57,929 bases of DNA from a virus (lineage: Duplodnaviria > Heunggongvirae > Uroviricota > Caudoviricetes): IMG/VR virus record IMGVR_UViG_2698536610_000002; one strand, 5' to 3'. Positions within the stretch are counted from its first letter, which is position 1. Each line of letters begins with the position of its first letter. Below the pieces are notes generated by a model. The model ran no database searches. It saw only the letters and a program-made list of their open reading frames with translations, and had not been told where the DNA came from. A program made the position numbers and the translations under genes. Below are positions 9,880 to 35,818 of the stretch, piece after piece.

Positions 9880-10911
9880 ATGTCCTCGAATATTTTATCT
9901 GGTGAAAAAGTAATCAATAAAATTGCTGAAAAGTTGAGCGATTATAAATATCCTCCGGCTGAAGGTATGAACTCTGAACATGTCAGCAAATGGATTAAGC
10001 AATTTGCAGTGGAGGATAGACGATTTATCTTAGATGAAACGCTTTATCTACTTAATGCAGGTTACCTATCCGAAAGTCAATATCAACGAAAAATAAAAGC
10101 CATTGCAAGAAGTGAAAAGAACGCGAAATTCTTCAGATATGCAGGTTTTTTAGATATTCAAAAAAAAGGTTCTAGTCAGAAGGAATTGCTTAAATCTCTT
10201 TATGAAACAGTAGGGATCAAATTTAACATCGTTACTGAATCATCAACTCAAGATGAAGTAAATAAATTTGATACATTTGTATATATTGATGATGTGTCGT
10301 TTTCAGGAGAAAAGGCCATCAAATCGATAAGTAATTTTGTTTTAAAATTTAATTTAAGAGATATTAAATTCAATGTATATTTTTTTTCATCTCATACGTT
10401 ATCTGACTATAATATAAAAAGACGATTAGAATATATTTTTAAGGATAGAAACATTTTTGTACACGTGAAGAATGGTGGTATGCGTGAGGTTGAAAACCGA
10501 AAAAGTCGTTCTGCTCAATCAGGTGTTTTCTGGCCAAGGAAATATAGTGTAGATACTCCCGAGAAATTCGAGGAGTGTGAGCTTTACAAAGGCGTATTCA
10601 GAGATGGATATGCCTCTTCTGATAGTTTTAGAAATGAAGCCTCAAGGGATCGTTTCGAATCTATCCTTACTAAAGTCGGCTTTAATATCTTGCTGCACAG
10701 GAAAACCCCTAGTGAGGTGCTCAAACCTCTAGGTTTTTCTACTTTTGACGGTTTGGGTTTTGGGGGAACAACATTTACTTATCGAAATTGCCCGAATAAT
10801 GTGCCGCTGGCTTTTTGGTGGGGAGATTATGAACCAACAGGTGCTCCCGCATTGGACTGCTGGTATCCACTAATGAAGCGGAATGGGTATAATGAGTGGT
10901 ATGAGCTATAG
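9880..10911 (+). CDS. Uncharacterised 343-aa protein, upstream partner of a NADAR gene
   Basis: AT-rich ORF with SD aagga 7 nt upstream; internal FVYIDDVSFSGEKA weakly resembles a PRPP-binding (PRTase) loop; no confident family assignment. Confidence 0.8.
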   Translation: MSSNILSGEKVINKIAEKLSDYKYPPAEGMNSEHVSKWIKQFAVEDRRFILDETLYLLNAGYLSESQYQRKIKAIARSEKNAKFFRYAGFLDIQKKGSSQKELLKSLYETVGIKFNIVTESSTQDEVNKFDTFVYIDDVSFSGEKAIKSISNFVLKFNLRDIKFNVYFFSSHTLSDYNIKRRLEYIFKDRNIFVHVKNGGMREVENRKSRSAQSGVFWPRKYSVDTPEKFEECELYKGVFRDGYASSDSFRNEASRDRFESILTKVGFNILLHRKTPSEVLKPLGFSTFDGLGFGGTTFTYRNCPNNVPLAFWWGDYEPTGAPALDCWYPLMKRNGYNEWYEL

Positions 10912-11512
10912 ATTATATCCGCTACAGAACACAGTTTCCTTCAGGAAAACCACCGAAAAATGGGGGGGGCTTTCCAACATGGCTAAAGGATATCCATTGT
11001 TAATCAATGGGTTGCCTATTCAATCAAGTGAAATCCTTTACCAAGCATGCCGATATCCAGACTATCCGGATATACAAAAGGCCATCATTACTCAAGGAAA
11101 CCCCTATGAAGCCAAGCAGACCGCAAGATCGTTTGAATCCAAAACTCGCGCAGGATGGGATAAGAATCGAGTTTCGATTATGAAGTGGTGTGTATGCGTA
11201 AAATTATGCCAGAACTGGGATACGTTCTTTGCGCTGTTAGACAGTACAGGCGACCATTTCATCGTGGAACACTCAGAGAAGGACCAATTCTGGGGTGCCA
11301 GTAAAGACCCAGAAGGTAACTATTATGGTATGAACGTATTAGGGCGAATTCTCATGGACGTGAGAGGGGTTGCTAGGAAAAAGGGGGCTGATGGGTTTGC
11401 AACAATACCATCGCTATCTTTGGACAAATTTTTTCTCCTAGGCGAAAGAATTAAAGATGTAACATTTGTAGAGCCAACGCCTGGAGCAGGGCAAAGTTTA
11501 TCCTTGTTTTAG
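10883..11512 (+). CDS. NADAR-domain protein (YbiA-like N-glycosidase/ADP-ribose-processing superfamily)
   Basis: 209 aa; N-terminal GGLSNM-type signature (WGGLSNMAKGYPL) and overall YbiA/DUF1768-like layout; overlaps the upstream gene by 29 nt. Confidence 0.7.
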   Translation: MGIMSGMSYRLYPLQNTVSFRKTTEKWGGLSNMAKGYPLLINGLPIQSSEILYQACRYPDYPDIQKAIITQGNPYEAKQTARSFESKTRAGWDKNRVSIMKWCVCVKLCQNWDTFFALLDSTGDHFIVEHSEKDQFWGASKDPEGNYYGMNVLGRILMDVRGVARKKGADGFATIPSLSLDKFFLLGERIKDVTFVEPTPGAGQSLSLF

Positions 11513-13834: not shown

Positions 13835-14917
13835 TTAGAACTGGTAAACCATACCTACAGCAACGATATCATCGGTAGCAACGCCAGATGCTTTCGTGAA
13901 ATCGCTCTTATCAATCAGGTTGATTTTGTAATCAACAAAAGTGGACATATTTTTGTTGAAGTAATAGGTTGCACCTACATCAATATATTCAACCAGGTCC
14001 TGATCACCCCACGCACCCAAGTCTTTTCCTTTAGATTGCAGGTAAGCAACGGACGGACGCAGACCGAAGTCGAACTGATATTGTGCAACTACTTCGAAGT
14101 TTTGTGCTTTGTTGGCAATATGGTTATTACCAAAAACAGTCATGTTCTGGGTTTCAGAATAGGTGGTAGCCAGATAGATGTTGTTCGCATCATATTTCAG
14201 ACCAGCTGCCCATACTTCAGCATTTTGACCAGATGCATTCAGGCTGTTGTTACCGTAGATAACCTGATTATTAGTGCGGTCAGATTTAGCATAGGTTGCA
14301 CCTACACCGAATCCTTCATACTCATAAGTAGTGGAGAAACCGAAACCATCACCATTAGCTTCAGTTACGTCAGTGCGGTCATTTTTACCCTGATACTGAG
14401 CAGCAAAGTTCAGACCATCAACCAGACCAAAGAAGTCGTTGTTACGATAAGTTGCAACACCAGTGGTGCGACCAGTCATGAACACATCTGTTTGGGTCCA
14501 GGTATCGCCACCGAATTCTGGCAGAACGTCAGTCCACGCACCGATGTCATATGCTACACCGTAGTTACGGCCGTAATCGATTGAGCCGTAGTCCCCGAAT
14601 TTCAGGCCTGCAAATGCAAGACGGGTTTTGTCTTTGGAGGAGCCTTGAGATTCAGCGCGGTTGCCTTTGAATTCATATTCCCACTGACCGAAACCAGTCA
14701 GTTGATCGTTGATTTGGGTTTCACCTTTGAAGCCAAGACGGGCATAAGTAGTATCACCATCATCTGCATCATTAGAGGAGAAGTAGTGCTTGGCATTAAC
14801 TTTCCCATATAGATCCAGCTTGTTACTGTCTTTATTATAAATTTCAGCTGCCTGAGCAGACATCGCCATCAGTACTGATGCAGCTACAGCAGAAATTGCC
14901 ACTGTTAATTTTTTCAT
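13835..14917 (-). CDS. nmpC: Outer-membrane porin (NmpC/OmpD-like), intact
   Basis: Start at [23 protein letters not shown] signal peptide; C-terminal ...VAVGMVYQF ending in Phe typical of porins. Confidence 0.9.
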
Positions 14918-15504
14918 CGTGAGCCCTTTTTTTGAACTATTATTAAAAAATGATGTCACTGCGCGATAAATATTCATCTAATCAATGTGATTATTTCAAG
15001 ATGTAAGTTTTAGTTTCTCATTTAATTTGTGAAGTAGATCTCTATTTTTATCTGAACTTTTTCTATCGAAACCTATTTATGGCTCTTATTTGAACAAAAA
15101 TAAACCTATTAGCTAATTTATATTAATGGTTGTTATTTATGGAGGTTCTATAATTCGGCAGTTTAATTTAAATCAACTAAAAATAACGCCTGAAATTATT
15201 TATTGGTTATTTGTTGAGGTTTTCTTATGTATTTGTGGTGGTGTTTTGAACACTCGGTAGCATTCTCATAAATATCATTCAGTGGTTTACGTACGTAAAA
15301 AATTGGTTATGCTGTTAAGAGTGGTTACTTCGTCACACAGCTTAAACCCGCCGTCGAGCTGGTTTTTCCATTTTCTGAGTCTCGATATTAGCTGATAACT
15401 CAATACCTGAGTTATTCACTGACTCCGAGTCTGTTACGTTTCTGCTTTTTTGCGATACGTTGTATTCCCTCAATTTACACCCGCTTTGTCTGCGAGGTGG
15501 GGTT

Positions 15505-17759: not shown

Positions 17760-17771
17760 GGGCGGCGACCT
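17760..17771. other. cosN cohesive-end site of the prophage (gggcggcgacct) with flanking cosQ/cosB
   Basis: ...cgatccgacaggttacg gggcggcgacct cgcgggttttcgctatttatgaaaattttccggtttaagg... identical in layout to the lambda cos region; Nu1 starts 178 nt downstream. Confidence 0.9.
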
Positions 17772-17948
17772 CGCGGGTTTTCGCTATTTATGAAAATTTT
17801 CCGGTTTAAGGCGTTTCCGTTCTTCTTCGTCGTAACTTAATGTTTTTATTTAAAATACCCCCTAAAAAGAAAGGAAACGACAGGTGCTGAAAACGAACTT
17901 TTGGGCCTCTGTCGTTTCCTTTCTCTGTTTTTGGCCGTGGAATGAACA

Positions 17949-18468
17949 ATGGAAGTCAACAAAAAGCAGCTGGCTGACATTTTCGGTGCGAGTATCCGTA
18001 CCATTCAGAACTGGCAGGAACAGGGAATGCCCGTTCTGCGAGGCGGTGGCAAGGGTAATGAGGTGCTTTATGACTCTGCCGCCGTTATAAGATGGTATGC
18101 CGAAAGGGATGCTGAAATTGAGAACGAAAAGCTGCGCCGGGAAGTTGAAGAACTGCGGCGGGCCAGCGAGACAGATCTCCAGCCAGGGACTATTGAGTAC
18201 GAACGCCATCGACTTACGCGTGCGCAGGCCGACGCACAGGAGCTGAAAAATGCCAGAGACTCCGCTGAAGTGGTGGAAACCGCATTCTGTACTTTCGTGC
18301 TGTCGCGGATCGCAGGTGAAATTGCCAGTATTCTCGACGGGATCCCCCTGTCGGTGCAGCGGCGTTTTCCGGAACTGGAAAACCGACATGTTGATTTCCT
18401 GAAACGGGATATCATCAAAGCCATGAACAAAGCAGCCGCGCTGGATGAACTGATATCGGGGTTGCTGA

Positions 18469-18494
<26 letters not shown>
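17949..18494 (+). CDS. Nu1: Terminase small subunit Nu1
   Basis: 181 aa MEVNKKQLADIFGASIRTIQNWQEQGMPVLRGGGKGNEV... matches lambda Nu1. Confidence 0.95.
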
Positions 18495-21475
<2,981 letters not shown>

Positions 21476-21552: not shown

Positions 21553-21604
21553 GTGTATTGCAATGTGTATTGCAAATTGGCGATCGGGATGGGTGTGTAT
21601 TGCA
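21553..21604 (+). repeat. Three direct copies of gtgtattgca next to the left junction (candidate integrase arm-type sites)
   Basis: gtgtattgca at 21553-21562, 21565-21574, 21595-21604, just upstream of the island int start (21624). Confidence 0.5.
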
Positions 21605-21623
21605 AATCTCTTGAGGGCTTTTA

Positions 21624-22865
21624 ATGGCTATTGAAAACAAACTCAGTGACAAACTGTTAAAGAGTCTTGTCGGAAAACGGCAGGACAAACAAAAAACAAT
21701 AGCGGATGGGCGCGGGTTGTCTGTGCGTGTAAGCATGGTTGGGGGGATCAGCTTTGTTTTTTACTATCGTCTTGGTGGCAGGGAATCCCCTCCGGTATGG
21801 CTTACACTTGGTCGCTATCCTGACATGTCTCTTGCAACGGCCAGGCGCATGCGTGATCAGTGCCGTGAATGGCTAGCTGAAAATCTGGACCCCCGCAGGC
21901 AAATAAAACTTGCTGCCGAAAAAACTATGCAACCAGTGACCGTAAGGGATGCGCTGTTTTACTGGTACGACAATCACGCCACAACAGCCAGAAAAGAGCA
22001 TGAATATTTAATAAAACGATTTGAAAAGCATATCTTCCCCTATATCGGTGATATGGCTATAGAACAGTGCAAATTACACACATGGCTTACCGTCTTTGAC
22101 AGGATCAAAAAAAATGCGCCTGTTATGTCTGGTGCAATTTTTCTTGATATCAAACAGGCGTTGCGTTTTTGTCGCGTCAGGCAATACATCGCGTGCGATC
22201 CCTTTGGAGATATTAACGTAAGTTATGTCGGGCGCTCATCCGGTATAAGGGATCGCGTTCTTAATATCAATGAAACCGCTGATGTATGGTCTTATGCTTA
22301 CGGTAATAATTTGCTAACTCTGTCATCAATATATAACCGAAGAATAATGGTTATCTGCCTGGTGTTTGGTTGCCGACAGCAGGAGGCGAGGCTATCCACC
22401 TGGGACGAATGGGATTTAAAAAACTGGGTATGGACAGTCCCAAAAGAGCACAGCAAAAACAAGGAGGCTATAGTAAGGCCTGTTCCTGACGGAATAAAAC
22501 AATGGATCGTTAATCTTTACGCAGAAACAAAAAATCGCGGTTATGTTGTCGGTTGTGCTTTGCAAAGGGCGACAATAACAGGGGCTGCAAACAGAATATG
22601 CAGGCGTCTTGGTCATGATACTAATGGCTTGTGGTGCATACATGATTTCAGGCGCACATTTTCCACTACGCTTAATGATATGGGGGCGGATCCTTATATT
22701 GTCGAACTTCTTTTAGGTCATAAAGTGAAAGGGGTTGCTGGTGTTTACAATAAAAGCAGGCATATAAAGAAAAAACTTGAGGTGCTTAATATGTGGGTTA
22801 ATTACCTTAATACGATAGCAGGATTTAACAACAACGTTATCGAGCTTAATAAAGAGGTGGTGTGA
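21624..22865 (+). CDS. int: P4-type tyrosine integrase
   Basis: 413 aa; N-terminal arm-binding-like region GRGLSVRVSMVGGISFVFYYR; C-terminal HDFRRTF...LLGHK...GVYNKS catalytic motifs. Confidence 0.9.
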   Translation: MAIENKLSDKLLKSLVGKRQDKQKTIADGRGLSVRVSMVGGISFVFYYRLGGRESPPVWLTLGRYPDMSLATARRMRDQCREWLAENLDPRRQIKLAAEKTMQPVTVRDALFYWYDNHATTARKEHEYLIKRFEKHIFPYIGDMAIEQCKLHTWLTVFDRIKKNAPVMSGAIFLDIKQALRFCRVRQYIACDPFGDINVSYVGRSSGIRDRVLNINETADVWSYAYGNNLLTLSSIYNRRIMVICLVFGCRQQEARLSTWDEWDLKNWVWTVPKEHSKNKEAIVRPVPDGIKQWIVNLYAETKNRGYVVGCALQRATITGAANRICRRLGHDTNGLWCIHDFRRTFSTTLNDMGADPYIVELLLGHKVKGVAGVYNKSRHIKKKLEVLNMWVNYLNTIAGFNNNVIELNKEVV

Positions 22866-22866
22866 T

Positions 22867-23124
22867 ATGGCAATTTATTCTCTTGTTGATGAAAACGATT
22901 TGCGCACAATGAAGGACATTGATCGGTTCATTCGTGAAAAAGAGTGCATAGCACTTACCACGCTGGCAAACTCAACACGCTGGAAAATGGAGCAGGCAGG
23001 TAAATTCCCGCGACGTATCAAGATCGGTGAACGTGCTGCAGGGTATCGACTTTCAGAGGTTCAGGCATGGATCCGTGGTGAGTGGCATCCTGGATGGAAA
23101 CCTGGAAAAACAAAACAGCAATAA
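22867..23124 (+). CDS. alpA: AlpA-family transcriptional regulator/excisionase-like protein
   Basis: 85 aa; KFPRRIKIGERAAGYRLSEVQAWIRGEW pattern typical of AlpA. Confidence 0.7.
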   Translation: MAIYSLVDENDLRTMKDIDRFIREKECIALTTLANSTRWKMEQAGKFPRRIKIGERAAGYRLSEVQAWIRGEWHPGWKPGKTKQQ

Positions 23125-23180: not shown

Positions 23181-23759
23181 ATGAATAAAAATATTGCCGT
23201 GACGGGCAAGGGGTACGCTCGTCCAGTGAAAAAATTCTGCGATATTCGTGATCTCGTCGTTCTGCGCTTTGATAGTGTGAACGTTCGTGTGGTGTATCTG
23301 AACGGCGATCCGTGGTTTGTTGCAAAAGATGTTTGTGCTGCGCTGGAACTAACCAATTCGCGTACGGCGTTGCAGATGCTTGATGATGATGAAAAGGGAG
23401 TAAATTTAACTTACACCCCAGGAGGAAATCAGAATATGAGAATTATCTCTGAGTCAGGTTTCTACAAACTAATAGCCCGCAGCCGCAAAGCAACGACGCC
23501 TGGCACATTTGCTCATCGTTTCAGTAACTGGGTATTCAGAAATGTGATACCAGGTATCAGAAAAACGGGGACTTATGGTATCCCGTGGGGTGCATTACAG
23601 GATTTTTCCCGCCGTAAAGAGCAATATCAAATAAGTGCCAGCGAGAAGGGGAGGGAGCTACAGGCATGTAAGCGCAAAAAGCGTGAGCTGGAGGAAGAAG
23701 AAAAAACGCTGATACGTGAATATCAGCCTGAGTTTTACTTTGGTAACCGCATTCAGTGA
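23181..23759 (+). CDS. Bro-N domain protein (antirepressor-like)
   Basis: VRVVYLNGDPWFVAKDVCAALELTNSRTALQMLDDDEKG is a canonical Bro-N signature. Confidence 0.7.
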   Translation: MNKNIAVTGKGYARPVKKFCDIRDLVVLRFDSVNVRVVYLNGDPWFVAKDVCAALELTNSRTALQMLDDDEKGVNLTYTPGGNQNMRIISESGFYKLIARSRKATTPGTFAHRFSNWVFRNVIPGIRKTGTYGIPWGALQDFSRRKEQYQISASEKGRELQACKRKKRELEEEEKTLIREYQPEFYFGNRIQ

Positions 23760-24092: not shown

Positions 24093-24398
24093 CTATTCAT
24101 GCTCTTTGACCTTGCGTCGCTGGAGTTCTTCACGCGCGACGGTGACGAGTTGCCCGATCTCCTCGGCTGCTTTGATGCCGATTTGTTCGACCTTAGCCAG
24201 GGCATCCAGTGACGACACAAGGGGATTTTCTCCGCTGCCTTCTGCTTGGCGGCGGGCTATTTCTCCGCGCATGGCGGTTACGATAAATCCGGCATTGCTT
24301 TCACCGTCCAGCTTAACGGATTCCATCCCTTGCATAACATCTAGTGGGACTCTGACAGTTGTCAGTTGTGATTTTGCGTTTTTGTTAGCCGTTGCCAT
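24093..24398 (-). CDS. Hypothetical protein divergent from the small-ORF operon (possible regulator)
   Basis: 101-aa ORF; start codon confirmed at 24396-24398; lies opposite a promoter/operator region. Confidence 0.45.
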   Translation of the reverse strand: MATANKNAKSQLTTVRVPLDVMQGMESVKLDGESNAGFIVTAMRGEIARRQAEGSGENPLVSSLDALAKVEQIGIKAAEEIGQLVTVAREELQRRKVKEHE

Positions 24399-24588: not shown

Positions 24589-24786
24589 ATGGTTGCTGTA
24601 AATCATATACCACACCTTGTACACACACAAACGGCCTTTGTGTGGCGTTTTCTGGCACTGAGTGCCGGAGAATCTCAAATCATCCACGTAACCGCCTGGA
24701 CGGAACGCGAAGCGCGTAGCCGTTGCCCGTCCGGTTGTGTTGCTGTATTCGCTGCAAAAATCCGCCAGGGAGTGAGTCATGCTTAA
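24589..24786 (+). CDS. Small hypothetical protein (first gene of the island operon)
   Basis: 65-aa ORF with SD aggag 7 nt upstream; stop overlaps next ORF start. Confidence 0.45.
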   Translation: MVAVNHIPHLVHTQTAFVWRFLALSAGESQIIHVTAWTEREARSRCPSGCVAVFAAKIRQGVSHA

Positions 24787-24964
24787 AACCTTCCGTGTAT
24801 TTGCCCGAGCTGTTAACCCAATAGGCCACGCAATTGGTATCGCTCAGAATGTGAAGGCTGTTAATGTTCAGACGGCTATTGCTGCGGTGAGAAGCGAATC
24901 ATCAGAATATGGCTTATCACAAGTCATTATTTCAGCAGTGTATGAATTAAAAGAGGTGCATTAA
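24779..24964 (+). CDS. Small hypothetical protein
   Basis: 61-aa ORF; start/stop overlap neighbours (translationally coupled chain). Confidence 0.4.
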   Translation: MLKTFRVFARAVNPIGHAIGIAQNVKAVNVQTAIAAVRSESSEYGLSQVIISAVYELKEVH

Positions 24965-25155
24965 TGCAGGAAATTACATTACACGAAGCCGCTGAACGTG
25001 CGCACCAGACAGAAATTATTTGCCGCCTTCTTGAGGTATACCCGAACAAAATTACAGATGCTGATATATCCGCACTGGCGAGCCTACTGGCGCGTCTTTC
25101 GGGAAGTGTCGCTAGTTTTTTGATTGAGGAAGAAAGTAAGCTGGTGGGGGATTAA
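24964..25155 (+). CDS. Small hypothetical protein
   Basis: 63-aa ORF in the coupled chain. Confidence 0.4.
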   Translation: MQEITLHEAAERAHQTEIICRLLEVYPNKITDADISALASLLARLSGSVASFLIEEESKLVGD

Positions 25156-25377
25156 ATGAATACAGAACGGGAAGTCTTTTTTAAATTGTTAGCATGTGCA
25201 GAAAGTTCATTAACTTTAAATAATTCAGCAAAAGCAATATTAAATATGTGGCTTGATTGCATAAATGACAATGAAGATGCAAATATTGCTTATGGCCTGT
25301 TGTCACTTATTGATGAATCAGCAGAAAAACTCAATGACGCAATAAATAGTGCCCTGCTATCAAATAAGTCGAGTTAA
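25156..25377 (+). CDS. Small hypothetical protein
   Basis: 73-aa AT-rich ORF in the coupled chain. Confidence 0.4.
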   Translation: MNTEREVFFKLLACAESSLTLNNSAKAILNMWLDCINDNEDANIAYGLLSLIDESAEKLNDAINSALLSNKSS

Positions 25378-25394
25378 GTCGAGGAATAAATAAT

Positions 25395-25694
25395 ATGGAA
25401 ATGAAAAATTCTGGCTTTATTGCCAGCGGCCCCGCTCGAACTGAATTTATGAACGGCGATATTTACCGCGATAAATACGGCGGCACGGTAACGATTAAAG
25501 GCGTGGCAGAACGGCGCATCACTTACCGCCGTGAGGGGTATAGCTATGACTGCGTGATGCCTGTTTATCAGTTCCGGCGTGATTTTTCCCTGGTATATGC
25601 CACACCCCGCAGTAAGCCCATCAGCAGGGAAAAAGCGTGGGGAAATATCCAGAAAATGAAAACCATGATTAACGGATTCAGAGGTAAAAAATGA
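25395..25694 (+). CDS. Hypothetical protein
   Basis: 99-aa ORF; stop overlaps the primase start. Confidence 0.45.
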   Translation: MEMKNSGFIASGPARTEFMNGDIYRDKYGGTVTIKGVAERRITYRREGYSYDCVMPVYQFRRDFSLVYATPRSKPISREKAWGNIQKMKTMINGFRGKK

Positions 25695-27445
25695 AACTGG
25701 CACCGAACGTAAAACAGCAGTCACGCGGCATAAAACACAAAGGAACAGAAGTCATTATTTTTGCGGGTAGTGATGCCTGGGCACACGCGAAACAATGGCA
25801 GGAACATGATGCGCGTATGGCCGGAGATAATGAGCCTCCTGTGTGGCTTGGGGAGCAGCAGCTATCCGAACTGGATAATCTGCAAATTGTGCCGGAAGGC
25901 CGAAAATCAGCACGCATATACAGGGCCGGATATCTTGCGCCTGTAATGATAAAGGCGATTGGTCAGAAGCTGGCGGCAGCAGGCGTACAGGATGCAAATT
26001 TTTATCCTGAGGGTATGCACGGCCAGGAGGTGCAGAACTGGCGCGAATATCTGGCCCGTGAACGCCAGAATCTTTCTGATGGTCTGGTCATTGAGCTTCC
26101 GGTAAAGCAAAAGGCGCAACTTTCGCAGATGGCGGACAGTGAGCGCGCGCAGTTGCTTGCCGATCGCTTTGATGGCGTTTGCGTACATCCTGAAAGTGAA
26201 ATCGTTCACGTATGGCGCGGCGGGGTATGGTGTCCGGTCAGCACAATGGAACTTAGCCGCGAAATGGTGGCGATCTATTCAGAGCACAGGGCCACTTTCA
26301 GCAAGCGCGTAATCAATAACGCCGTGGAAGCGTTAAAAGTTATTGCCGAACCAATGGGCGAGCCGTCTGGCGATTTGCTGCCGTTCGCCAATGGTGCGCT
26401 TGACCTGAAAACGGGGGAATTTTCCCCGCACACGCCGGAGGACTGGATCACCACGCACAACGGCATTGAGTACACGCCACCAGCACCAGGGGAGAACATC
26501 CGCGATAACGCGCCAAACTTTCATAAATGGCTTGAGCACGCAGCCGGAAAAGACCCGCGCAAGATGATGCGTATATGTGCCGCGCTGTACATGATTATGG
26601 CGAACCGGTACGACTGGCAGATGTTTATTGAGGCCACCGGAGACGGCGGGAGCGGTAAAAGTACATTCACACACATAGCCAGCCTTCTGGCAGGGAAACA
26701 GAACACGGTAAGCGCTGAAATGACATCGCTTGATGATGCTGGTGGACGTGCGCAGGTTGTCGGGAGTCGTCTTATCGTCCTGGCTGACCAGCCGAAATAT
26801 ACAGGCGAAGGAACGGGCATCAAGAAAATCACAGGCGGCGACCCCGTGGAAATTAACCCGAAATATGAAAAGCGTTTCACGGCGGTAATCAGGGCGGTGG
26901 TGCTGGCGACCAACAACAACCCGATGATATTCACCGAACGGGCCGGAGGTGTGGCACGTCGTCGCGTGATTTTCCGTTTCGACAATATCGTCAGTGAGGC
27001 CGAAAAAGACAGGGAGCTACCGGAAAAGATTGCGGCTGAAATCCCCGTTATTATCCGCCGATTGCTGGCGAACTTTACCGACCCTGAGAAGGCACGGGCT
27101 TTACTACTGGAACAGCGTGACGGTGATGAAGCACTGGCAATAAAGCAACAGACGGATCCGGTTATTGAGTTTTGCCAGTTCCTGAATTTTCTGGAGGAAG
27201 CGCGCGGCCTGATGATGGGTGGCGGTGGTGATTCAGTGAAGTACACGACCAGGAACAGCCTTTACCGCGTCTATCTGGCGTTTATGGCATACGCGGGCAG
27301 GAGCAAACCGCTAAACGTGGCTGAGTTCAGCAAGGCCATGAAGCCAGCGGCGAAAGTTTACGGGCATGAATATATTACGCGAAAAGTTAAGGGAGTAACG
27401 CAGACCAACGCAATTACAACAGACGATTGCGACGCGTTTTTATAA
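25691..27445 (+). CDS. P4-alpha-like primase-helicase (D5/P4-family C-terminal NTPase)
   Basis: 584 aa; Walker A TGDGGSGKST and Walker B-like RLIVLAD; size and position typical of satellite replication proteins. Confidence 0.85.
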   Translation: MKLAPNVKQQSRGIKHKGTEVIIFAGSDAWAHAKQWQEHDARMAGDNEPPVWLGEQQLSELDNLQIVPEGRKSARIYRAGYLAPVMIKAIGQKLAAAGVQDANFYPEGMHGQEVQNWREYLARERQNLSDGLVIELPVKQKAQLSQMADSERAQLLADRFDGVCVHPESEIVHVWRGGVWCPVSTMELSREMVAIYSEHRATFSKRVINNAVEALKVIAEPMGEPSGDLLPFANGALDLKTGEFSPHTPEDWITTHNGIEYTPPAPGENIRDNAPNFHKWLEHAAGKDPRKMMRICAALYMIMANRYDWQMFIEATGDGGSGKSTFTHIASLLAGKQNTVSAEMTSLDDAGGRAQVVGSRLIVLADQPKYTGEGTGIKKITGGDPVEINPKYEKRFTAVIRAVVLATNNNPMIFTERAGGVARRRVIFRFDNIVSEAEKDRELPEKIAAEIPVIIRRLLANFTDPEKARALLLEQRDGDEALAIKQQTDPVIEFCQFLNFLEEARGLMMGGGGDSVKYTTRNSLYRVYLAFMAYAGRSKPLNVAEFSKAMKPAAKVYGHEYITRKVKGVTQTNAITTDDCDAFL

Positions 27446-27731: not shown

Positions 27732-28046
27732 ATGCGCATACATAAAAATCACTTAACAAACATGCCAGCCGAAAACATGAATCAGGGGCGACAAATGACC
27801 AAAATTCGCAGAGACAGAACACAGGCAAAATATAAAGCGTTAGACATGACAGAGCTTTCCTTAAAGGTGGCAATCAAAGCGATAGACCACCACACACGGG
27901 CAGGATACGCGAAGGAACATCCCGACCTGATAAGCGCATTCATGACCACAGCAGCGGCAAACTTTGCCACGCTGACAGAACGGGAGATTGCCGAAGCGGA
28001 ACAGGTGACAACCATCAATGTTAAAACCGGAGAGCAGACAGCATGA
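27732..28046 (+). CDS. Hypothetical protein
   Basis: 104-aa ORF preceded by a G9 homopolymer (27714-27722). Confidence 0.4.
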   Translation: MRIHKNHLTNMPAENMNQGRQMTKIRRDRTQAKYKALDMTELSLKVAIKAIDHHTRAGYAKEHPDLISAFMTTAAANFATLTEREIAEAEQVTTINVKTGEQTA

Positions 28047-28465
28047 CAGCACAGATAGCGGCTTACGGGCGGCTGGTGGCTGACCCGCAGTTAAAGACCA
28101 CCAGCAAAGGGACACAAATGGCGATGGCGAGTATGGCGGTTCCCCTGCCGTGCAGCCAGGCAGATGACGGAACGGCGACGATGTGGTTATCCGTCCTGGC
28201 GTTTGGCAGACAGGCCGACGCACTGGCAAAACACCACAAAGGCGAACTGGTGAGCGTGGCGGGTAACATGCAGGTAAGCCAGTGGACAGGCCAGAACGGC
28301 GAAACGCGGCGGGGCTGGCAGGTTATCGCAGACAGCGTAATCAGTGCGCGAACGGCGCGACCGGGCGGCAAAAAAGGCCAGCAGGGGCAGGCCACTGACG
28401 CACTGAACAGGGCAAAACAACAGTCGGGGAATGATGATCCGTACGGCGATAATATACCGTTTTAA
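28043..28465 (+). CDS. SSB-like single-stranded DNA-binding protein
   Basis: 140 aa; Gly/Gln-rich tail ending in the acidic DDPYGDNIPF motif characteristic of SSB C-termini. Confidence 0.55.
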   Translation: MTAQIAAYGRLVADPQLKTTSKGTQMAMASMAVPLPCSQADDGTATMWLSVLAFGRQADALAKHHKGELVSVAGNMQVSQWTGQNGETRRGWQVIADSVISARTARPGGKKGQQGQATDALNRAKQQSGNDDPYGDNIPF

Positions 28466-28676: not shown

Positions 28677-29723
28677 ATGAGTATGGTTGATTTATATTCG
28701 CCTACACAGCTTGTGCAGGTGGCTAATGCTGAAGATGTGCAAAAAAAATTAAATGCGTTGTTTACCAGTTTGTTTTTCACTCGCTCGGTAATGTTTGAAT
28801 CGAGAGACATTATTCTTGATACGATCGACGATCCAAATATCCCGATCGCGGCGTTTTGCTCTCCTATGGTGGGCAGTAAAGTTTCACGAGATGAGGGATA
28901 CGAATCAAAAACAATTCGTCCAGGTTATATGAAGCCGAAAAGCAGCATTGATCCAAATAAGTTAGCTGTGCGCCCTGCTGGTGTGTCACCTGAGCAATAC
29001 AATGCTTTTGGGGCGCGTAATATTAAAGTTAAACAGGCGATTGTAAATCAGGCTAAAGCTATTCGTGCACGTATTGAATGGCTTGCTGTTCAGGCAATCA
29101 CAACGGGGAAAAATATCATTGAGGGCGATGGTATTGAACGTTATGAGCTGGACTGGAATATAAAACCACAAAATATCATCACTCAGTCTGGCGGTACTGA
29201 GTGGTCAGGTAAGGATAAAGAAACTTTTGATCCAAATGATGATATTGAGAGCTACGCAGAATTTAGTGAGGGCGTCACTAATATCATCATTATGGGTGGT
29301 AATGTATGGAAGAAATACCGTTCATTCAGAGCGATAAAAGAGGCTTTGGATACCCGTCGTGGTTCTAATTCCGAACTGGAAACGGCCCTTAAAGACCTTG
29401 GTGATTCGGTGAGTTTTAAAGGGTATATGGGCGATGTTGCGATTGTTGTTTACAGCGGGCGTTATACCGACGAGGACGGAACAGAAAAACATTTCCTTGA
29501 TCCTGATTTGATGGTGCTTGGCAATACGGCTCTTCAGGGGATTGTCGCCTATGGCGGTATTCAGGATCCGGAGCTAATCCGAATGGGGCTGACTAAAGCC
29601 GAACTTGCACCGAAAAACTATATTGTGCCTGGTGATCCGGCTATTGAATATGTGCAGACACATTCAGCACCACAGCCAATACCGGCCCGCATCAATCGTT
29701 TTGTTACCGTTCGCATTGGCTAA
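28677..29723 (+). CDS. Major capsid protein E homologue (island copy)
   Basis: Starts MSM like lambda gpE; blocks ITQSGGTEWS, LDTRRGSNSELETALKDLG and YMGDVAIVVYSG align with the helper gpE at 34793-35818. Confidence 0.8.
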   Translation: MSMVDLYSPTQLVQVANAEDVQKKLNALFTSLFFTRSVMFESRDIILDTIDDPNIPIAAFCSPMVGSKVSRDEGYESKTIRPGYMKPKSSIDPNKLAVRPAGVSPEQYNAFGARNIKVKQAIVNQAKAIRARIEWLAVQAITTGKNIIEGDGIERYELDWNIKPQNIITQSGGTEWSGKDKETFDPNDDIESYAEFSEGVTNIIIMGGNVWKKYRSFRAIKEALDTRRGSNSELETALKDLGDSVSFKGYMGDVAIVVYSGRYTDEDGTEKHFLDPDLMVLGNTALQGIVAYGGIQDPELIRMGLTKAELAPKNYIVPGDPAIEYVQTHSAPQPIPARINRFVTVRIG

Positions 29724-29732
29724 GGGGGAGCA

Positions 29733-30074
29733 ATGCCTACTCATTACACTGAACTCATGGCTGGCACTGAAGCACTGGTGACTACGCTGGGGATATTTTC
29801 AGCTAATAAAGGGGTAATTCCTGCATTTACGCCACTGATGCAGGAAGATGCAACAGGTGCACTGGTGGTATGGGATGGTTCGAGCGTAGGTAAAGCGGTT
29901 TATGTTTCCGCTGTACAAATCGACACAGCGAAAAAAACACAGGCACAGGTTTATAAGACAGGTGTTTTAAATGTTGATGCTCTGAACTGGCCTGAGTCTG
30001 TAAAAGAACTGTCGGCAAAGGTTGCCGCGTTTGTTGGCTCAGGTATTTCTGTTCAGCCGCTGGCTCGTGTGTAA
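29733..30074 (+). CDS. Head decoration protein D homologue (island copy)
   Basis: 113 aa; FTPLMQEDATGALVVWDGSSVGKAVYVSAV and AAFVGSGISV align with lambda gpD ([30 protein letters not shown] ... AFAGTAISI). Confidence 0.8.
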   Translation: MPTHYTELMAGTEALVTTLGIFSANKGVIPAFTPLMQEDATGALVVWDGSSVGKAVYVSAVQIDTAKKTQAQVYKTGVLNVDALNWPESVKELSAKVAAFVGSGISVQPLARV

Positions 30075-30085
30075 AGGGGGATACA

Positions 30086-30469
30086 ATGCAGAATCATTAC
30101 AATGACCTTAAGCCAATTGCCGAAATGATGTATCCGGATCCAGCAGTAGAGGAATTAAAGGCTATTGCTGACAAAATGCGTTTAAGTGAACGCCTTGTTG
30201 ATATGAATCAGGTGATGGAACTTACTACCCTTAGCCGTCGCACATTGCTAAACCTTGAGGCTCGCGGAGAGTTCCCCGAACGCGTACAGGTTACGGAAGG
30301 GCGTAAGGCCTGGTATTTAAGTGAAGTGATCGACTGGATAAACAATATTCCTCGATCTTCTGAATATTGCCGCGTATCTGTCCCAAAAAAGCCAGATGCG
30401 GCGCTATGCCTCAAGATTGAGCGTGTACGTCGCAATGCACGGGATGGTCGCTATAAGTTGATTGGTTGA
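30086..30469 (+). CDS. HTH protein (AlpA/MerR-like) upstream of the island cos
   Basis: 127 aa; LTTLSRRTLLNLEARGEFPERVQV...WYLSEVIDWINN resembles an AlpA-type HTH. Confidence 0.45.
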   Translation: MQNHYNDLKPIAEMMYPDPAVEELKAIADKMRLSERLVDMNQVMELTTLSRRTLLNLEARGEFPERVQVTEGRKAWYLSEVIDWINNIPRSSEYCRVSVPKKPDAALCLKIERVRRNARDGRYKLIG

Positions 30470-30525
30470 TGAAATTAGGGCCCGTTCTGGCTGGCGGGTC
30501 CTTTCCGGCGATCCGGTAGGCTACG

Positions 30526-30537
30526 GGGCGGCGACCT
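30526..30537. other. Second cosN (gggcggcgacct) belonging to the island
   Basis: gggtcctttccggcgatccggtaggctacg gggcggcgacct cgcgggttttcgctatttatga: near-identical to the helper cos for ~75 nt, then diverges in the cosB region. Confidence 0.8.
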
Positions 30538-30685
30538 CGCGGGTTTTCGCTATTTATGAGCCTTTTTCGGGTGCTGGTGGTGGTTTTGTTGTTCGCTCTA
30601 TCTCTATGAATAAAAAGGAAAAGATAAAGCCAATACACCAACCTGAAACATTACTTAAGTGGGGATATTGATGAAATCGCACCTG

Positions 30686-31213
30686 ATGAACAAAAAAAAC
30701 ATGGCGCAAAGCTGCCGTGTAAGTGCGACAGCGTTCGACAAGTGGGGAGTGACTCCCGTTGAACGTAAAGGCCGCGAGGCGTTTTATGATGTTGCCAGCG
30801 TAATAGACAATCGGGTTAGCAATGCAATTAACCAGATTACAGACGACAAAGGCGAGATTGATGATGATGAACTCCTACGAGTCAGGATCAGATTGCTGAC
30901 AGCACAGGCAGAGGCGCAGGAGCTTAAAAACGAGCGCGAACGCGGCGACGTTATTGATACAGCGTTTTGTATATACGTGCTTTCAAAATTGGCGAGTCAG
31001 ATTTCTTCAATCATGGACAGCCTGCCGCTTGCCATGACAAGGAAGTTTCCCGACATGAAGCCGTCTATGCTGGATGGACTGAAAAAAGAAGTTATCAGAG
31101 CCTGTAACGCATGCGCAAAACTTGACGAAAACATACCGCTGATGCTGTCCGATTATCTGATGGAAACTGCCGGAAACGTACCGGATAAGTTGCAGCCGAA
31201 TAAAGATAAGTAA
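30686..31213 (+). CDS. Nu1-like small terminase subunit (island copy, divergent N-terminal DNA-binding domain)
   Basis: Start set at MNKKNMAQ (Nu1 MEVNKKQLA); C-terminal ELKNERERGDVIDTAFCIYVLSKLASQISSIMDSLPLAMTRKFP aligns with Nu1 ELKNARDSAEVVETAFCTFVLSRIAGEIASILDGIPLSVQRRFP. Confidence 0.8.
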   Translation: MNKKNMAQSCRVSATAFDKWGVTPVERKGREAFYDVASVIDNRVSNAINQITDDKGEIDDDELLRVRIRLLTAQAEAQELKNERERGDVIDTAFCIYVLSKLASQISSIMDSLPLAMTRKFPDMKPSMLDGLKKEVIRACNACAKLDENIPLMLSDYLMETAGNVPDKLQPNKDK

Positions 31214-31224
31214 CGTAGTACGCT

Positions 31225-31506
31225 ATGACTGAATCCGAAATACTGCGATTAATCCGCCGTGCTTGTGGAATCAGCAAGCAGCATGACGAACAGGCCACGC
31301 AGCCGGACAGCGTGACCGCAGATAATTATGTGCGTGTAGTGGCTGAGGTGATGCGCCGTGACGGTATTGAGCTTAACGGCGTGGATATGCGCAACATACG
31401 AACAAGAGTCCTTGAGTTGCTGGCATATCGTCGCCGTTCTCAACAACGGAGGGAGAGCGCGAAAAATACTTACCAGTGGAAGAAGCCGGAACGATTGCGG
31501 CGGTAA
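31225..31506 (+). CDS. Hypothetical protein
   Basis: 93-aa ORF, Arg-rich C-terminus. Confidence 0.4.
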   Translation: MTESEILRLIRRACGISKQHDEQATQPDSVTADNYVRVVAEVMRRDGIELNGVDMRNIRTRVLELLAYRRRSQQRRESAKNTYQWKKPERLRR

Positions 31507-31521
31507 CTTGCTGATATTCCC

Positions 31522-31879
31522 GATAACGCAAAATTGCGCTGGCTGACTTGTTGCATTGCAAAAAGTTAAGCAGGAAGGCACGGCCTGTAAGATGGGATGC
31601 AGTAAGTAGTTCAAGGCTACCTTGTGCTGGCACGCACAGTTAAGCCGTCGGTGCTGGATATCCCCCACTGGGGGAAAAGCTGGCTACATCCCTCACATCT
31701 GAGGACTGATAACGCGACATTGCGCTGGCTGGCAAAGTGCAAAATTGCACGATGGCCTAACCCATTGATTATTTCGAAAACCTGCAATGCAGGAAATCGG
31801 GGAAGTAAGCCTAAGCTATTAATTGTTTCGAAAACCCCCATTGGGGGATGTCGGGAAAGTAAGACTAACCCATTGATTC
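31522..31879. repeat. Non-coding array of repeated hairpin-containing modules
   Basis: gataacgc(a/g)a(a/c)attgcgctggctg twice (31522, 31708); tandem ~55-bp units tt(a/g)tttcgaaaacc[hairpin]g(a/g)tcggg(g/a)aagtaag(c/a)ctaa at 31770 and 31825; cccattgatt flanks at 31761 and 31870. Confidence 0.55.
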
Positions 31880-32220
31880 TTCCACAATCCTCAATTTGAG
31901 GAGGCCGGAACGTCTACATAGCTGCATCGCCGTAATGATGATTCAGCCCACCAGCCAAATCAGCACAGCAACGACAGAATAGCCCGACACAGAAAAACCA
32001 CGAATATGGGGTTTTTGTTATGACATGGTCATGATGACCACTCATACAAAACAGGTAAAGCCCACCAGCCTGATTAAAGGTTAACCGGAAAAAAGCCAGG
32101 TATCCAATCTCGATATGGGGATCCCTATATCGACATTAACGCCCACTAAAACTGTGCATATATGCATAGAAAAAGCATCCACCAGCTTTATGACGGATGC
32201 CGCTCATCTTATAAATAATC

Positions 32221-32242
32221 GTGTATTGCAGTGTGTATTGCG
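32221..32242 (+). repeat. Two copies of gtgtattgc(a/g) next to the right junction
   Basis: gtgtattgca 32221-32230 and gtgtattgcg 32233-32242, same motif as at the left end. Confidence 0.5.
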
Positions 32243-32321
32243 ACTCCTTTAAACGATAGGTCTGAGCATTCGTAATGTACTGTTTTTAAATTTTATTTTT
32301 TCCTGTCTTTTCATAAAGGCG

Positions 32322-33095
32322 ATGTATGCCGCCACCATTGAGAGTGAGCTGGATACGCAGTCAGCGATGGATTTTATTCTGGGCGCGAACAGTCAGGAGC
32401 AGCGGGAAAGGCTGACCGGCTGGATTGGTGAAATTGCCGCGTATTACGCCGCAGCACCGGTCCGTCTGGGAGGCGCAAAAGTGCCGCACCTGATGCCGGG
32501 GGACTCACTGAACCTGCAGACGGCTCAGGACACGGATAACGGCTACTCCGTGTTTGAGCAGTCACTGTTGCGGTATATCGCTGCCGGGCTGGGTGTCTCG
32601 TATGAGCAGCTTTCCCGGAATTACGCCCAGATGAGCTACTCCACGGCACGGGCCAGTGCGAACGAGTCGTGGGCGTACTTTATGGGGCGGCGAAAATTCG
32701 TCGCATCCCGTCAGGCGAGCCAGATGTTTCTGTGCTGGCTGGAAGAGGCCATCGCTCGCCGCGTGGTGACGTTACCTTCAAAAGCGCGCTTCAGTTTTCA
32801 GGAAGCCCGAAGTGCCTGGGGGAACTGCGACTGGATAGGCTCCGGTCGTATGGCCATCGATGGTCTGAAAGAAGTACAGGAAGCGGTGATGCTGATAGAA
32901 GCCGGACTGAGTACCTACGAGAAAGAGTGCGCAAAACGCGGTGACGACTATCAGGAAATTTTTGCCCAGCAGGTCCGTGAAACGATGGAGCGCCGTGCAG
33001 CCGGTCTTAAACCGCCCGCCTGGGCGGCTGCGGCATTTGAATCCGGACTGCGACAATCAACAGAGGAGGAGAAGAGTGACAGCAGAGCTGCGTAA
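32322..33095 (+). pseudogene. B: Portal protein B, C-terminal 257 codons, separated from the N-terminal part by the island
   Basis: MYAATIESELDTQSAMDFILGANSQEQRERLTGW... continues lambda gpB exactly from the residue after ...SAIVKA. Confidence 0.85.
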
Positions 33096-34404: not shown

Positions 34405-34737
34405 ATGACGAGCAAAGAAACCTTTACCCATTACCAGCCGCTGGGCAACAGTGACCCGGCTCATACCGCAACCGCGCCCGGCGGATTGAGTGCGAAAGCG
34501 CCTGCAATGACCCCGCTGATGCTGGACACCTCCACCCGTAAGCTGGTTGCGTGGGATGGCACCACCGACGGTGCTGCCGTTGGCATTCTTGCAGTTGCTG
34601 CTGACCAGACCAGCACCACACTGACGTTCTACAAGTCCGGCACGTTCCGTTATGAGGATGTGCTCTGGCCGGAGGCTGCCAGCGACGAGACGAAAAAACG
34701 GACCGCGTTTGCCGGAACGGCAATCAGCATCGTTTAA
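34405..34737 (+). CDS. D: Head decoration protein D
   Basis: [43 protein letters not shown]... matches lambda gpD. Confidence 0.95.
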
Positions 34738-34792
34738 CCTGACCCTTCATCACTAAAGGCCGCCTGTGCGGCTTTTTTTACGGGATTTTTTT

Positions 34793-35818
34793 ATGTCGAT
34801 GTACACAACCGCCCAGCTGCTGGCGGCAAATGAGCAGAAATTTAAGTTTGATCCGCTGTTTCTGCGTCTCTTTTTCCGTGAGAGCTATCCCTTCACCACG
34901 GAGAAAGTCTATCTCTCACAAATTCCGGGACTGGTAAACATGGCGCTGTACGTTTCGCCGATTGTTTCCGGTGAGGTTATCCGTTCCCGTGGCGGCTCCA
35001 CCTCTGAATTTACGCCGGGATATGTCAAGCCGAAGCATGAAGTGAATCCGCAGATGACCCTGCGTCGCCTGCCGGATGAAGATCCGCAGAATCTGGCGGA
35101 CCCGGCTTACCGCCGCCGTCGCATCATCATGCAGAACATGCGTGACGAAGAGCTGGCCATTGCTCAGGTCGAAGAGATGCAGGCAGTTTCTGCCGTGCTT
35201 AAGGGCAAATACACCATGACCGGTGAAGCCTTCGATCCGGTTGAGGTGGATATGGGCCGCAGTGAGGAGAATAACATCACGCAGTCCGGCGGCACGGAGT
35301 GGAGCAAGCGTGACAAGTCCACGTATGACCCGACCGACGATATCGAAGCCTACGCGCTGAACGCCAGCGGTGTGGTGAATATCATCGTGTTTGATCCGAA
35401 AGGCTGGGCGCTGTTCCGTTCCTTCAAAGCCGTCAGGGAGAAGCTGGATACCCGTCGTGGCTCTCATTCCGAGCTGGAGACAGCGGTGAAAGACCTGGGT
35501 AAAGCGGTGTCCTATAAGGGGATGTATGGCGATGTGGCCATCGTCGTGTATTCCGGACAGTACGTGGAAAACGGCGTCAAAAAGAACTTCCTGCCGGACA
35601 ACACGATGGTGCTGGGTAACACTCATGCACGCGGTCTGCGCACCTATGGCTGTATTCAGGATGCGGATGCATTGAGTGAGGGTATTAATGCGTCTCCCCG
35701 TTATCCGAAAAACTGGAAGACATCCGGCGATCCGGCGCGAGAGTTCACCATGATTCAGTCAGCACCGCTGATGCTGCTGGCTGATCCTGATGAGTTCGTG
35801 GCCGTTCAACTGGCGTAA
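34793..35818 (+). CDS. E: Major capsid protein E
   Basis: MSMYTTAQLLAANEQKFKFDPLFLRLFFRESYPF... matches lambda gpE. Confidence 0.95.
   Translation: MSMYTTAQLLAANEQKFKFDPLFLRLFFRESYPFTTEKVYLSQIPGLVNMALYVSPIVSGEVIRSRGGSTSEFTPGYVKPKHEVNPQMTLRRLPDEDPQNLADPAYRRRRIIMQNMRDEELAIAQVEEMQAVSAVLKGKYTMTGEAFDPVEVDMGRSEENNITQSGGTEWSKRDKSTYDPTDDIEAYALNASGVVNIIVFDPKGWALFRSFKAVREKLDTRRGSHSELETAVKDLGKAVSYKGMYGDVAIVVYSGQYVENGVKKNFLPDNTMVLGNTHARGLRTYGCIQDADALSEGINASPRYPKNWKTSGDPAREFTMIQSAPLMLLADPDEFVAVQLA

Follow-up and report, generated by a model that had tools for sequence, protein, structure and literature searches.

The 57.9-kb window (the whole stretch of DNA analyzed, 57,929 nucleotides; IMG/VR virus record IMGVR_UViG_2698536610_000002) is a complete lambda-type prophage, and its portal gene B contains a 10,900-bp island that is co-oriented with B. 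The island is a helper-embedded phage-inducible chromosomal island (HE-PICI, a subset of the PICIs), and the prophage is its helper. Two adjacent island genes, called E and D here, encode a major capsid protein and a head decoration protein. The shell genes of the two elements are as follows.

28683..29723, plus strand: island major capsid protein (E), gpE-like, of a satellite lineage (Pfam Phage_cap_E, alignments, AlphaFold)
29733..30074, plus strand: island head decoration protein (D), gpD/SHP-like, of a satellite lineage (Pfam HDPD, alignments, AlphaFold)
34405..35818, plus strand: helper gpD (34405-34737) and gpE (34793-35818), both intact, aligned to island E and D

Profile and fold identify island E as a member of the lambda gpE family (Phage_cap_E, HK97 fold). 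The protein matches Pfam Phage_cap_E with E = 2.9e-41 (142 bits; curated cut-off 22.9), and it is 41% identical to helper E over its full length (E = 7e-85). Its AlphaFold model (pLDDT 79) superposes on lambda gpE with TM-scores of 0.86-0.89 and has no extra domain. The TM-score rises to 0.91 for PDB 3BQW, the crystal structure of c1499 from the satellite EcCICFT073, which is also the top sequence match of island E (1e-121). Island D is identified in the same way as a member of the lambda gpD/SHP family (HDPD). It matches Pfam HDPD with E = 4e-15 (56.4 bits; curated cut-off 29.1), it is 38% identical to helper D (E = 9e-18), and its model (pLDDT 81) aligns to phage 21 SHP and lambda gpD with TM-scores of 0.82-0.91 and a root-mean-square deviation of 1.4 Å. 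An initial annotation, made from the letters alone, had called the two open reading frames (ORFs) homologues of lambda gpE and gpD, and the alignments together with the predicted HK97-type and gpD folds bear this out. It had begun E at 28677. The ATG at 28683 is the more likely start because it is properly spaced from an AAGAGG ribosome-binding site and is also the RefSeq start. The shell genes run E then D in the island and D then E in lambda. A promoter and terminator scan returned fewer promoter-like sites than shuffled sequence, and one weak site just 5' of E (28615-42) is not relied on.

The sequences most similar to the island pair are not found in phages. Among 50,697 phage records, the best match of island E is lambda at 42% identity, and the best match of island D reaches 41%. 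A recent capture of E and D from the helper or another sequenced phage was rejected on this ground, as no phage record exceeds 42% identity. The description of the pair in the initial annotation as clearly divergent, rather than recently duplicated, therefore holds, although the helper copy it had called lambda-identical is 97.7-98.6% identical to lambda-family phages in its D-E DNA. Homologues in the protein database form two sets that average-linkage clustering separates: one clade with 50-100% identity, and a phage-type group with ≤44%. Named members of the 50-100% clade come from Escherichia, Salmonella, Cedecea, Scandinavium, Serratia, Edwardsiella, and Lelliottia. Clade-specific substitutions in E are concentrated in three places, the E-loop region, the long spine helix, and the C terminus, a regional pattern that is descriptive only. 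Positions 211-260 are the most conserved between the satellite and phage-type clades. One 342-residue capsid protein (P0043) groups with the phage-type sequences although it shares 59% identity with island E, and it might represent a recombinant of the satellite and phage lineages or a form intermediate between them.

The order E then D was found in all seven satellite contexts examined. All seven are PICIs or HE-PICIs, and they come from five enterobacterial genera. They include a chromosomal PICI at cspD/clpS (L004), an HE-PICI at the E site (L005), a Serratia PICI at the fis site (L006), an Edwardsiella HE-PICI at the portal site (L007), and a Lelliottia PICI at the fis site (L008). The closest relatives of the island modules differ from one module to the next: the integrase has its nearest relative in L007 (88%), the primase in EcCICFT073 (97.6%), the small terminase in L004 (82%), and E, D, and the helix-turn-helix (HTH) protein that follows them in L005 (94-99%). 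The divergence of E and that of D increase in step across elements. On these sequence comparisons, E and D travel together while the other modules shuffle. Island E shares 55% identity with c1499, and island D shares 54% with c1500; both of these genes were located in the CFT073 genome. Sequence clustering thus assigns the pair to a satellite-only lineage, orthologous to c1499/c1500 of EcCICFT073, which is first shown here. In unsaturated comparisons, E has a ratio of nonsynonymous to synonymous substitution rates (dN/dS) of 0.05-0.08 and D has one of 0.09, values that show strong purifying selection on both genes. The E-D allele of the island is present in 395 of 5,426 complete Escherichia coli genomes at ≥80% coverage.

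The Lelliottia element L008 has a larger set of late genes than the island. In addition to E and D it carries a 447-residue S49 (gpC-type) protease/scaffold gene (10409-11752 of L008), and a Phage_HCP head-closure gene is found near its alpA.

The boundaries of the island within portal gene B were located by the following features.

20594..21428, plus strand: helper portal gene B, 5' part, interrupted at codons 275-279
21416..21428, plus strand: attL core AAGGCGATTTATG inside portal gene B, 12 of 13 bases equal to the attR core
21554..21573, plus strand: HE-PICI doubled arm motif TGTATTGCnnTGTGTATTGC, left arm of attP, beginning 132 bp past the attL core centre
32222..32241, plus strand: HE-PICI doubled arm motif, right arm, finishing 81 bp ahead of the attR core centre
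32316..32328, plus strand: attR core AAGGCGATGTATG, whose in-silico join to the left flank gives an intact portal
32316..33095, plus strand: helper portal gene B, 3' part

Joining 20594-21415 to 32316-33095 in silico produces an uninterrupted 533-residue portal ORF with a single continuous Phage_portal_2 match. HE-PICIs, described by Tommasini, Mageeney, and Williams (bioRxiv 2022; NAR Genom Bioinform 2023; PMC10111431), are PICI-type satellites that integrate into lambdoid prophages, at sites in the late genes A, B, C, E, V, T, H, L, and J. A doubled motif, tgTGTATTGCantgTGTATTGCa, is diagnostic of them and is found 81 ± 2 bp upstream of the attP centre and again 132 ± 2 bp downstream of it (PMC10111431). 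The window contains exactly two copies of the doubled motif TGTATTGC, where none would be expected by chance, and the distances are 81 and 132 bp. An additional single copy of the motif is located near the left arm at 21594-21607. The key island genes are all on the late-operon strand, and the left junction passes into unrelated sequence. The integrase is 88% identical to that of the Edwardsiella HE-PICI at the same portal site, 54% identical to that of the E-site element, and 38-46% identical to those of chromosomal PICIs; its placement is by pairwise identity and catalogued site group, with no tree. The island thus has the split late gene, the attL/attR block with a target restored on excision, the doubled motif, and an integrase of the HE-PICI subclade.

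The element has in fact been catalogued. Islands in NZ_CP011416 and NZ_CP006834 are 99.8% identical to it over 100% of its length, and both are listed in the supplement of the HE-PICI paper as Eco2613.11 and Eco4623.11.B_Phage_portal_2_241 with the identity block 'aaggcgat' (PMC10111431). The att core of the island contains the same block. The island is present at ≥80% coverage in 53 complete E. coli genomes, and both copies inspected are in the same split portal gene. These data identify the island as an HE-PICI of group B:Phage_portal_2:241, already published. Tommasini et al. did not analyze the lineage, selection, or structure of E and D, and they demonstrated excision after helper induction only for the element 11capE (PMC10111431).

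The remaining island genes are listed below.

21624..22865, plus strand: tyrosine integrase, 413 residues (Pfam Arm-DNA-bind_3 and Phage_integrase)
22867..23124, plus strand: AlpA regulator/excisionase (Pfam Phage_AlpA, 5e-14)
23181..23759, plus strand: Bro-N/anti-repressor-like protein, the Bro zone (Pfam Bro-N, 5e-20; PHROG 2593, anti-repressor)
24093..24398, minus strand: YlcI/YnfO family ORF, named from the RefSeq annotation of a 99.8%-identical copy and without a Pfam match; the sole annotated minus-strand gene of the island
24589..25694, plus strand: Icd-like ORF, three small ORFs, and a DUF4222 protein
25691..27445, plus strand: primase/replication protein (D5_N, DUF5906, Pox_D5)
27794..28465, plus strand: hypothetical protein (PHROG 1231) and single-stranded DNA-binding protein
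30086..30469, plus strand: AlpA-like HTH protein, 127 residues, after E and D (Pfam Phage_AlpA, 1e-8; PHROG 2790)
30494..30559, plus strand: island cos site, with cosN GGGCGGCGACCT at 30526-30537, compared with the helper cos
30671..31213, plus strand: island small terminase, Nu1-like, 180 residues (Pfam Phage_Nu1, 3.5e-24; PHROG 57)
31225..31506, plus strand: conserved PICI ORF, 93 residues (PHROG 1561), 76% identical to the last EcCICFT073 ORF

The helper counterparts of the packaging genes are found upstream of the island.

17760..20394, plus strand: helper cosN (17760-17771), Nu1 (17949-18494), and large terminase A (18469-20394)

The cosN of the island is identical to that of the helper and its flanks are nearly identical, whereas the cosB side has diverged. 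The island Nu1-like protein is 37% identical to helper Nu1, the similarity is strongest in the C-terminal half, and the protein has no similarity to RppA of EcCICFT073. A helper-type cosN, a diverged cosB, and an island Nu1 with a helper-like C-terminal half therefore imply a hybrid terminase with helper gpA. Pfam and PHROG scans of the island ORFs examined returned no match for a portal, protease, or large terminase, and scaffold and tail genes are likewise absent from its gene list. These results agree with the statements in the initial annotation that the island lacks a portal, protease, and large terminase, and that it supplies only shell proteins, so that portal, protease/scaffold, large terminase, and tails must come from the helper. 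Its assumption that the whole terminase comes from the helper fails, as the island has its own Nu1-like subunit and cos. The portal-gene location, the packaging genes, and the catalogued status of the island had also been missed. The view of the island as an unusual intermediate is not supported, given the capsid gene present in 21 of 29 reference Gram-negative PICIs, c1499/c1500 in EcCICFT073, and the frequency of the allele in E. coli. The observation on which that annotation was built is sound; its interpretation is supported in part.

Other features of the island are recorded here. A second AlpA-like HTH gene lies directly 3' of D in the island, L004, L005, and L006, and it appears linked to the E-D module; the island protein is 94% identical to that of L005, 74% to that of L004, and 53% to that of L006. 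No similarity was found between this 127-residue protein and either RppA or the EcCICFT073 ORF that follows c1500. The right end of the island has about 800 bp of non-coding sequence that contains three tandem 54-nt units (31755-31916). The other two units are 78% and 61% identical to the first, and a short palindrome is present in every unit. The units may be protein-binding sites. A structured RNA was considered and rejected, as the fold z-score of only -1.3 is not convincing and there is no Rfam match. An Rfam scan of the whole island at a permissive threshold returned no match, including to P4-type CI, C4, or isrK RNA. PADLOC returned no defense-system match for E, D, or the Bro protein.

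The island also belongs among the Gram-negative PICIs. It has the unidirectional int - alpA - primase/replication backbone in 10-15 kb, and a helper cos or own packaging specificity factor, as in this class, is found. It departs from the class definition in one respect, the possession of E, D, and a small terminase. That criterion is not strict in practice because EcCICFT073 and 21 of 29 reference PICIs break it likewise; the capsid gene is the commonest late gene in the reference set (PMC10111431). Assignment as a capsid-forming PICI (cf-PICI) was rejected on gene content, as only a capsid protein, a decoration protein, and a small terminase were found among the ORFs examined. Assignment as a P4-like satellite was rejected as well, since the Sid, Psu, and Delta/Eps families were not found in the Pfam and PHROG scans and there is no CI RNA.

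The helper gene set comprises an integrase (1-1143), an S24 repressor, a porin, lysis genes, Nu1, A, W, head and tail genes, and cargo. Its replication proteins O and P are named from the annotation of the 99.8%-identical copy. The porin gene (13835-14977, minus strand; Porin_1, 3.7e-153) is full-length, encodes a general porin, and is located 5' of the lysis genes; in the 99.8%-identical copy the antiterminator Q gene (quuD) is on the other side of the porin gene, as in DLP12-type prophages. The nin region encodes a PRTase-CE protein next to a NADAR-domain protein (9880-11512). This pair has weak PADLOC matches to PRTase_III-A and PDC-M42C and is candidate defense or counter-defense cargo. 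An McrBC-like pair, a 660-residue AAA_5 protein and a 373-residue McrC-family protein, is found 3' of the tail-fibre genes (52438-55538) and is probably restriction-type cargo.

The anatomy of the island and the published behaviour of its relatives suggest the following life cycle. After SOS induction, helper late transcription would read into the co-oriented island. Excision would restore the portal gene, and the island would replicate from its own primase. The portal gene is split by the island and there is no portal before excision; therefore the satellite gates helper head assembly. Such 'regulated gene integrity' was previously described for HE-PICIs (PMC10111431). A hybrid terminase of the island small subunit and helper gpA would cut the island cos, and about four island copies (43.6 kb) would be packaged into normal lambda-type heads of triangulation number T=7, built on the helper portal and protease/scaffold and completed with helper tails. 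Four copies of 10.9 kb are about 90% of a lambda genome, which fits the normal lambda head. Island E and D would function as shell and cement proteins in those heads, supplementing or replacing helper gpE and gpD. They would raise the satellite yield modestly, and they would neither set head size nor be strictly required. A T=7 lambda head contains 415 gpE and about 405-420 gpD. The supply role is favored because the selection signal excludes junk, the folds are intact, and both proteins are needed in more than 400 copies per head. We give this account, taken as a whole with island E and D feeding normal-size heads for a modest gain in yield, an even chance of being correct.

Several points weigh against this supply role. 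In EcCICFT073 the authors found no phenotype for either gene, and deletion of c1500 gave no consistent change in transfer (PMC6092414). Transfer was scored as unaffected by deletion of either c1499 or c1500, and lambda interference was not relieved (PMC6092414). The values in Table 1 of that paper for the c1499 deletion and the wild type are 3.8e3 and 8e3, 1.64e3 and 3.4e3, 2.37e3 and 4.07e3, and 2.5e3 and 4.2e3 (PMC6092414). Our own reading of the table is that transfer is about two-fold lower in all four recipients; the authors scored no effect, and the difference is not established. The behaviour of EcCICFT073 may not transfer to the island because the E and D proteins are only about 55% identical and EcCICFT073 relies on Rpp, not on its own small terminase. 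Co-assembly of island E with helper gpE at 41% identity is unproven, and the substitutions in the E-loop region, spine helix, and C terminus could alter contacts with helper proteins.

E and D might have other roles. The initial annotation had proposed that the divergent E sets a smaller capsid matched to the genome of about 11 kb. In such a scheme, island E, stabilized by island D, would assemble on the helper portal and scaffold into a smaller T=4 or T=3 shell with room for a single island genome or two but not for the genome of the helper, by analogy with SaPIbov5 Ccm. There is precedent in the capsid homologue of the SaPIbov5 satellite, which redirects size (PMC6092414, PMC8569155), and in PmCI172, which encodes a capsid homologue and makes small heads (PMC6092414). 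The clade-diagnostic substitutions in the E-loop region and spine helix point the same way, and by our own geometric scaling a T=3 or T=4 shell would have room for 10.9 or 21.8 kb. However, the DNA packaged by EcCICFT073 is all phage-sized, and its c1499 and c1500 deletions leave lambda interference in place (PMC6092414). A normal head holds four island copies, and the fold of island E is gpE-like without an extra domain. A small-capsid role is thus not supported by this analysis and is contradicted in EcCICFT073, the nearest tested system. Size redirection with natural helpers is disfavored, and we consider it quite unlikely. With its natural helpers, the pair might instead assemble a shell of its own, pure or chimeric, on the helper portal and scaffold, which would differ in size, stability, or surface from that of the helper; this too is given a low probability. 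An interfering function, in which island E and D act as poison subunits that spoil head assembly by the helper or a rival lambdoid phage and so protect the host population or favor the satellite, would be in keeping with the common interference of PICIs with their helpers (PMC6092414). At 41% identity, a subunit whose capsomer core is conserved (211-260) could co-assemble defectively. Lambda plaquing on carriers of EcCICFT073 was not regained when c1499 or c1500 was deleted (PMC6092414), the effect there was attributed to RppA, E and D have no PADLOC match, and the constant co-inheritance of a cement protein with E is left unexplained. Poison subunits are accordingly rather improbable.

Two alternatives remain, a backup role and a functionless remnant. 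The satellite copies might substitute for helper shell genes that are interrupted or decayed and thereby make crippled prophages usable, and a captured late gene was proposed by Tommasini et al. to be an intact spare copy (PMC10111431). Gene E is the most frequent HE-PICI site (201 of 491 elements), and many helpers looked truncated (PMC10111431). The E-site element L005 carries E and D that are 98-99% identical to those of the island. The pair is also present, however, in the chromosomal PICIs L004, L006, L008, and EcCICFT073, and the helper of this portal-site island has both shell genes intact. An interrupted gene is restored by excision anyway, and the satellite lineage is old and not derived from current helpers. 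A backup role is therefore unlikely. Last, E and D could be functionless remnants, left from the capture of a larger late-gene cluster that the satellite is losing. Cycles of large capture followed by gene loss were proposed by Tommasini et al. (PMC10111431), no phenotype was reported for the EcCICFT073 pair (PMC6092414), and a few truncated variants occur in the databases (P0013, P0035, P0052). Against this are the dN/dS values of 0.05-0.09, the intact ORFs whose order is kept in satellites from five enterobacterial genera, full-length homologues in further genera, and the 395 E. coli genomes that carry the allele at ≥80% coverage. The selection signal brings this explanation close to refuted, and we regard it as most improbable.

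The island, its portal-gene location, and its capsid genes are all published and carry little weight as a discovery. The puzzle is a capsid and cement pair that is under strong purifying selection in satellites of several enterobacterial genera, yet has no reported phenotype. If the pair supplies or alters the head shell, satellites invest in the two most abundant head components, and classical PICIs would be linked to cf-PICIs. If instead the pair forms its own shell, these islands would be 'shell-only' capsid formers and, together with the gpC-type protease of L008, would mark a graded path from classical to capsid-forming PICIs.

The island was also compared with known systems. It matches HE-PICI group B:Phage_portal_2:241 in sequence, portal site, identity block, motif spacing, and four-zone layout, and nothing of substance differs. 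The founding HE-PICI, 11capE (Eco567.11capE), is the same kind of satellite but is located in helper gene E. L005, its relative at that site, has E, D, and HTH proteins 94-99% identical to those of the island (98-99% for E and D), whereas the integrase (54%), primase (43%), and small terminase (39%) are diverged and the target is E rather than B. The HE-PICI paper describes 11capE as lacking terS (PMC10111431), whereas the island has its own Nu1-like small terminase. EcCICFT073 (Fillol-Salom et al. 2018, PMC6092414) shares with the island the orthologous E-D pair in the same order, a lambda-type helper, a primase 97.6% identical, and a last ORF 76% identical. It is chromosomal and lacks a small terminase, and its RppA redirects the helper small terminase; the island encodes a Nu1-like protein of its own and nothing that resembles RppA. 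All DNA packaged by EcCICFT073 is phage-sized, which ruled out capsid size redirection (PMC6092414), and concatemers are packaged into full-size heads (PMC6092414, PMC10111431). Its lambda interference is attributed to RppA.

The shell proteins themselves share folds and families with lambda gpE and gpD and phage 21 SHP, but they are 38-42% identical to them, are encoded in the reverse order, and belong to a separate satellite-only clade. SaPIbov5 Ccm, like island E, is a satellite-encoded paralogue of the helper major capsid protein. Ccm alters capsid size and shape and blocks the phage, whereas the c1499/c1500 pair does neither in the sole system tested, and Ccm has no cement-protein partner, unlike island E. 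The cf-PICIs, such as EcCIEDL933 (10.1101/2022.09.08.507074), resemble the island in combining a PICI backbone with their own capsid protein distant from phage homologues. They add a protease, a portal, head-tail connectors, an HNH protein, and both terminase subunits, and they take only tails from the helper (10.1101/2022.09.08.507074).

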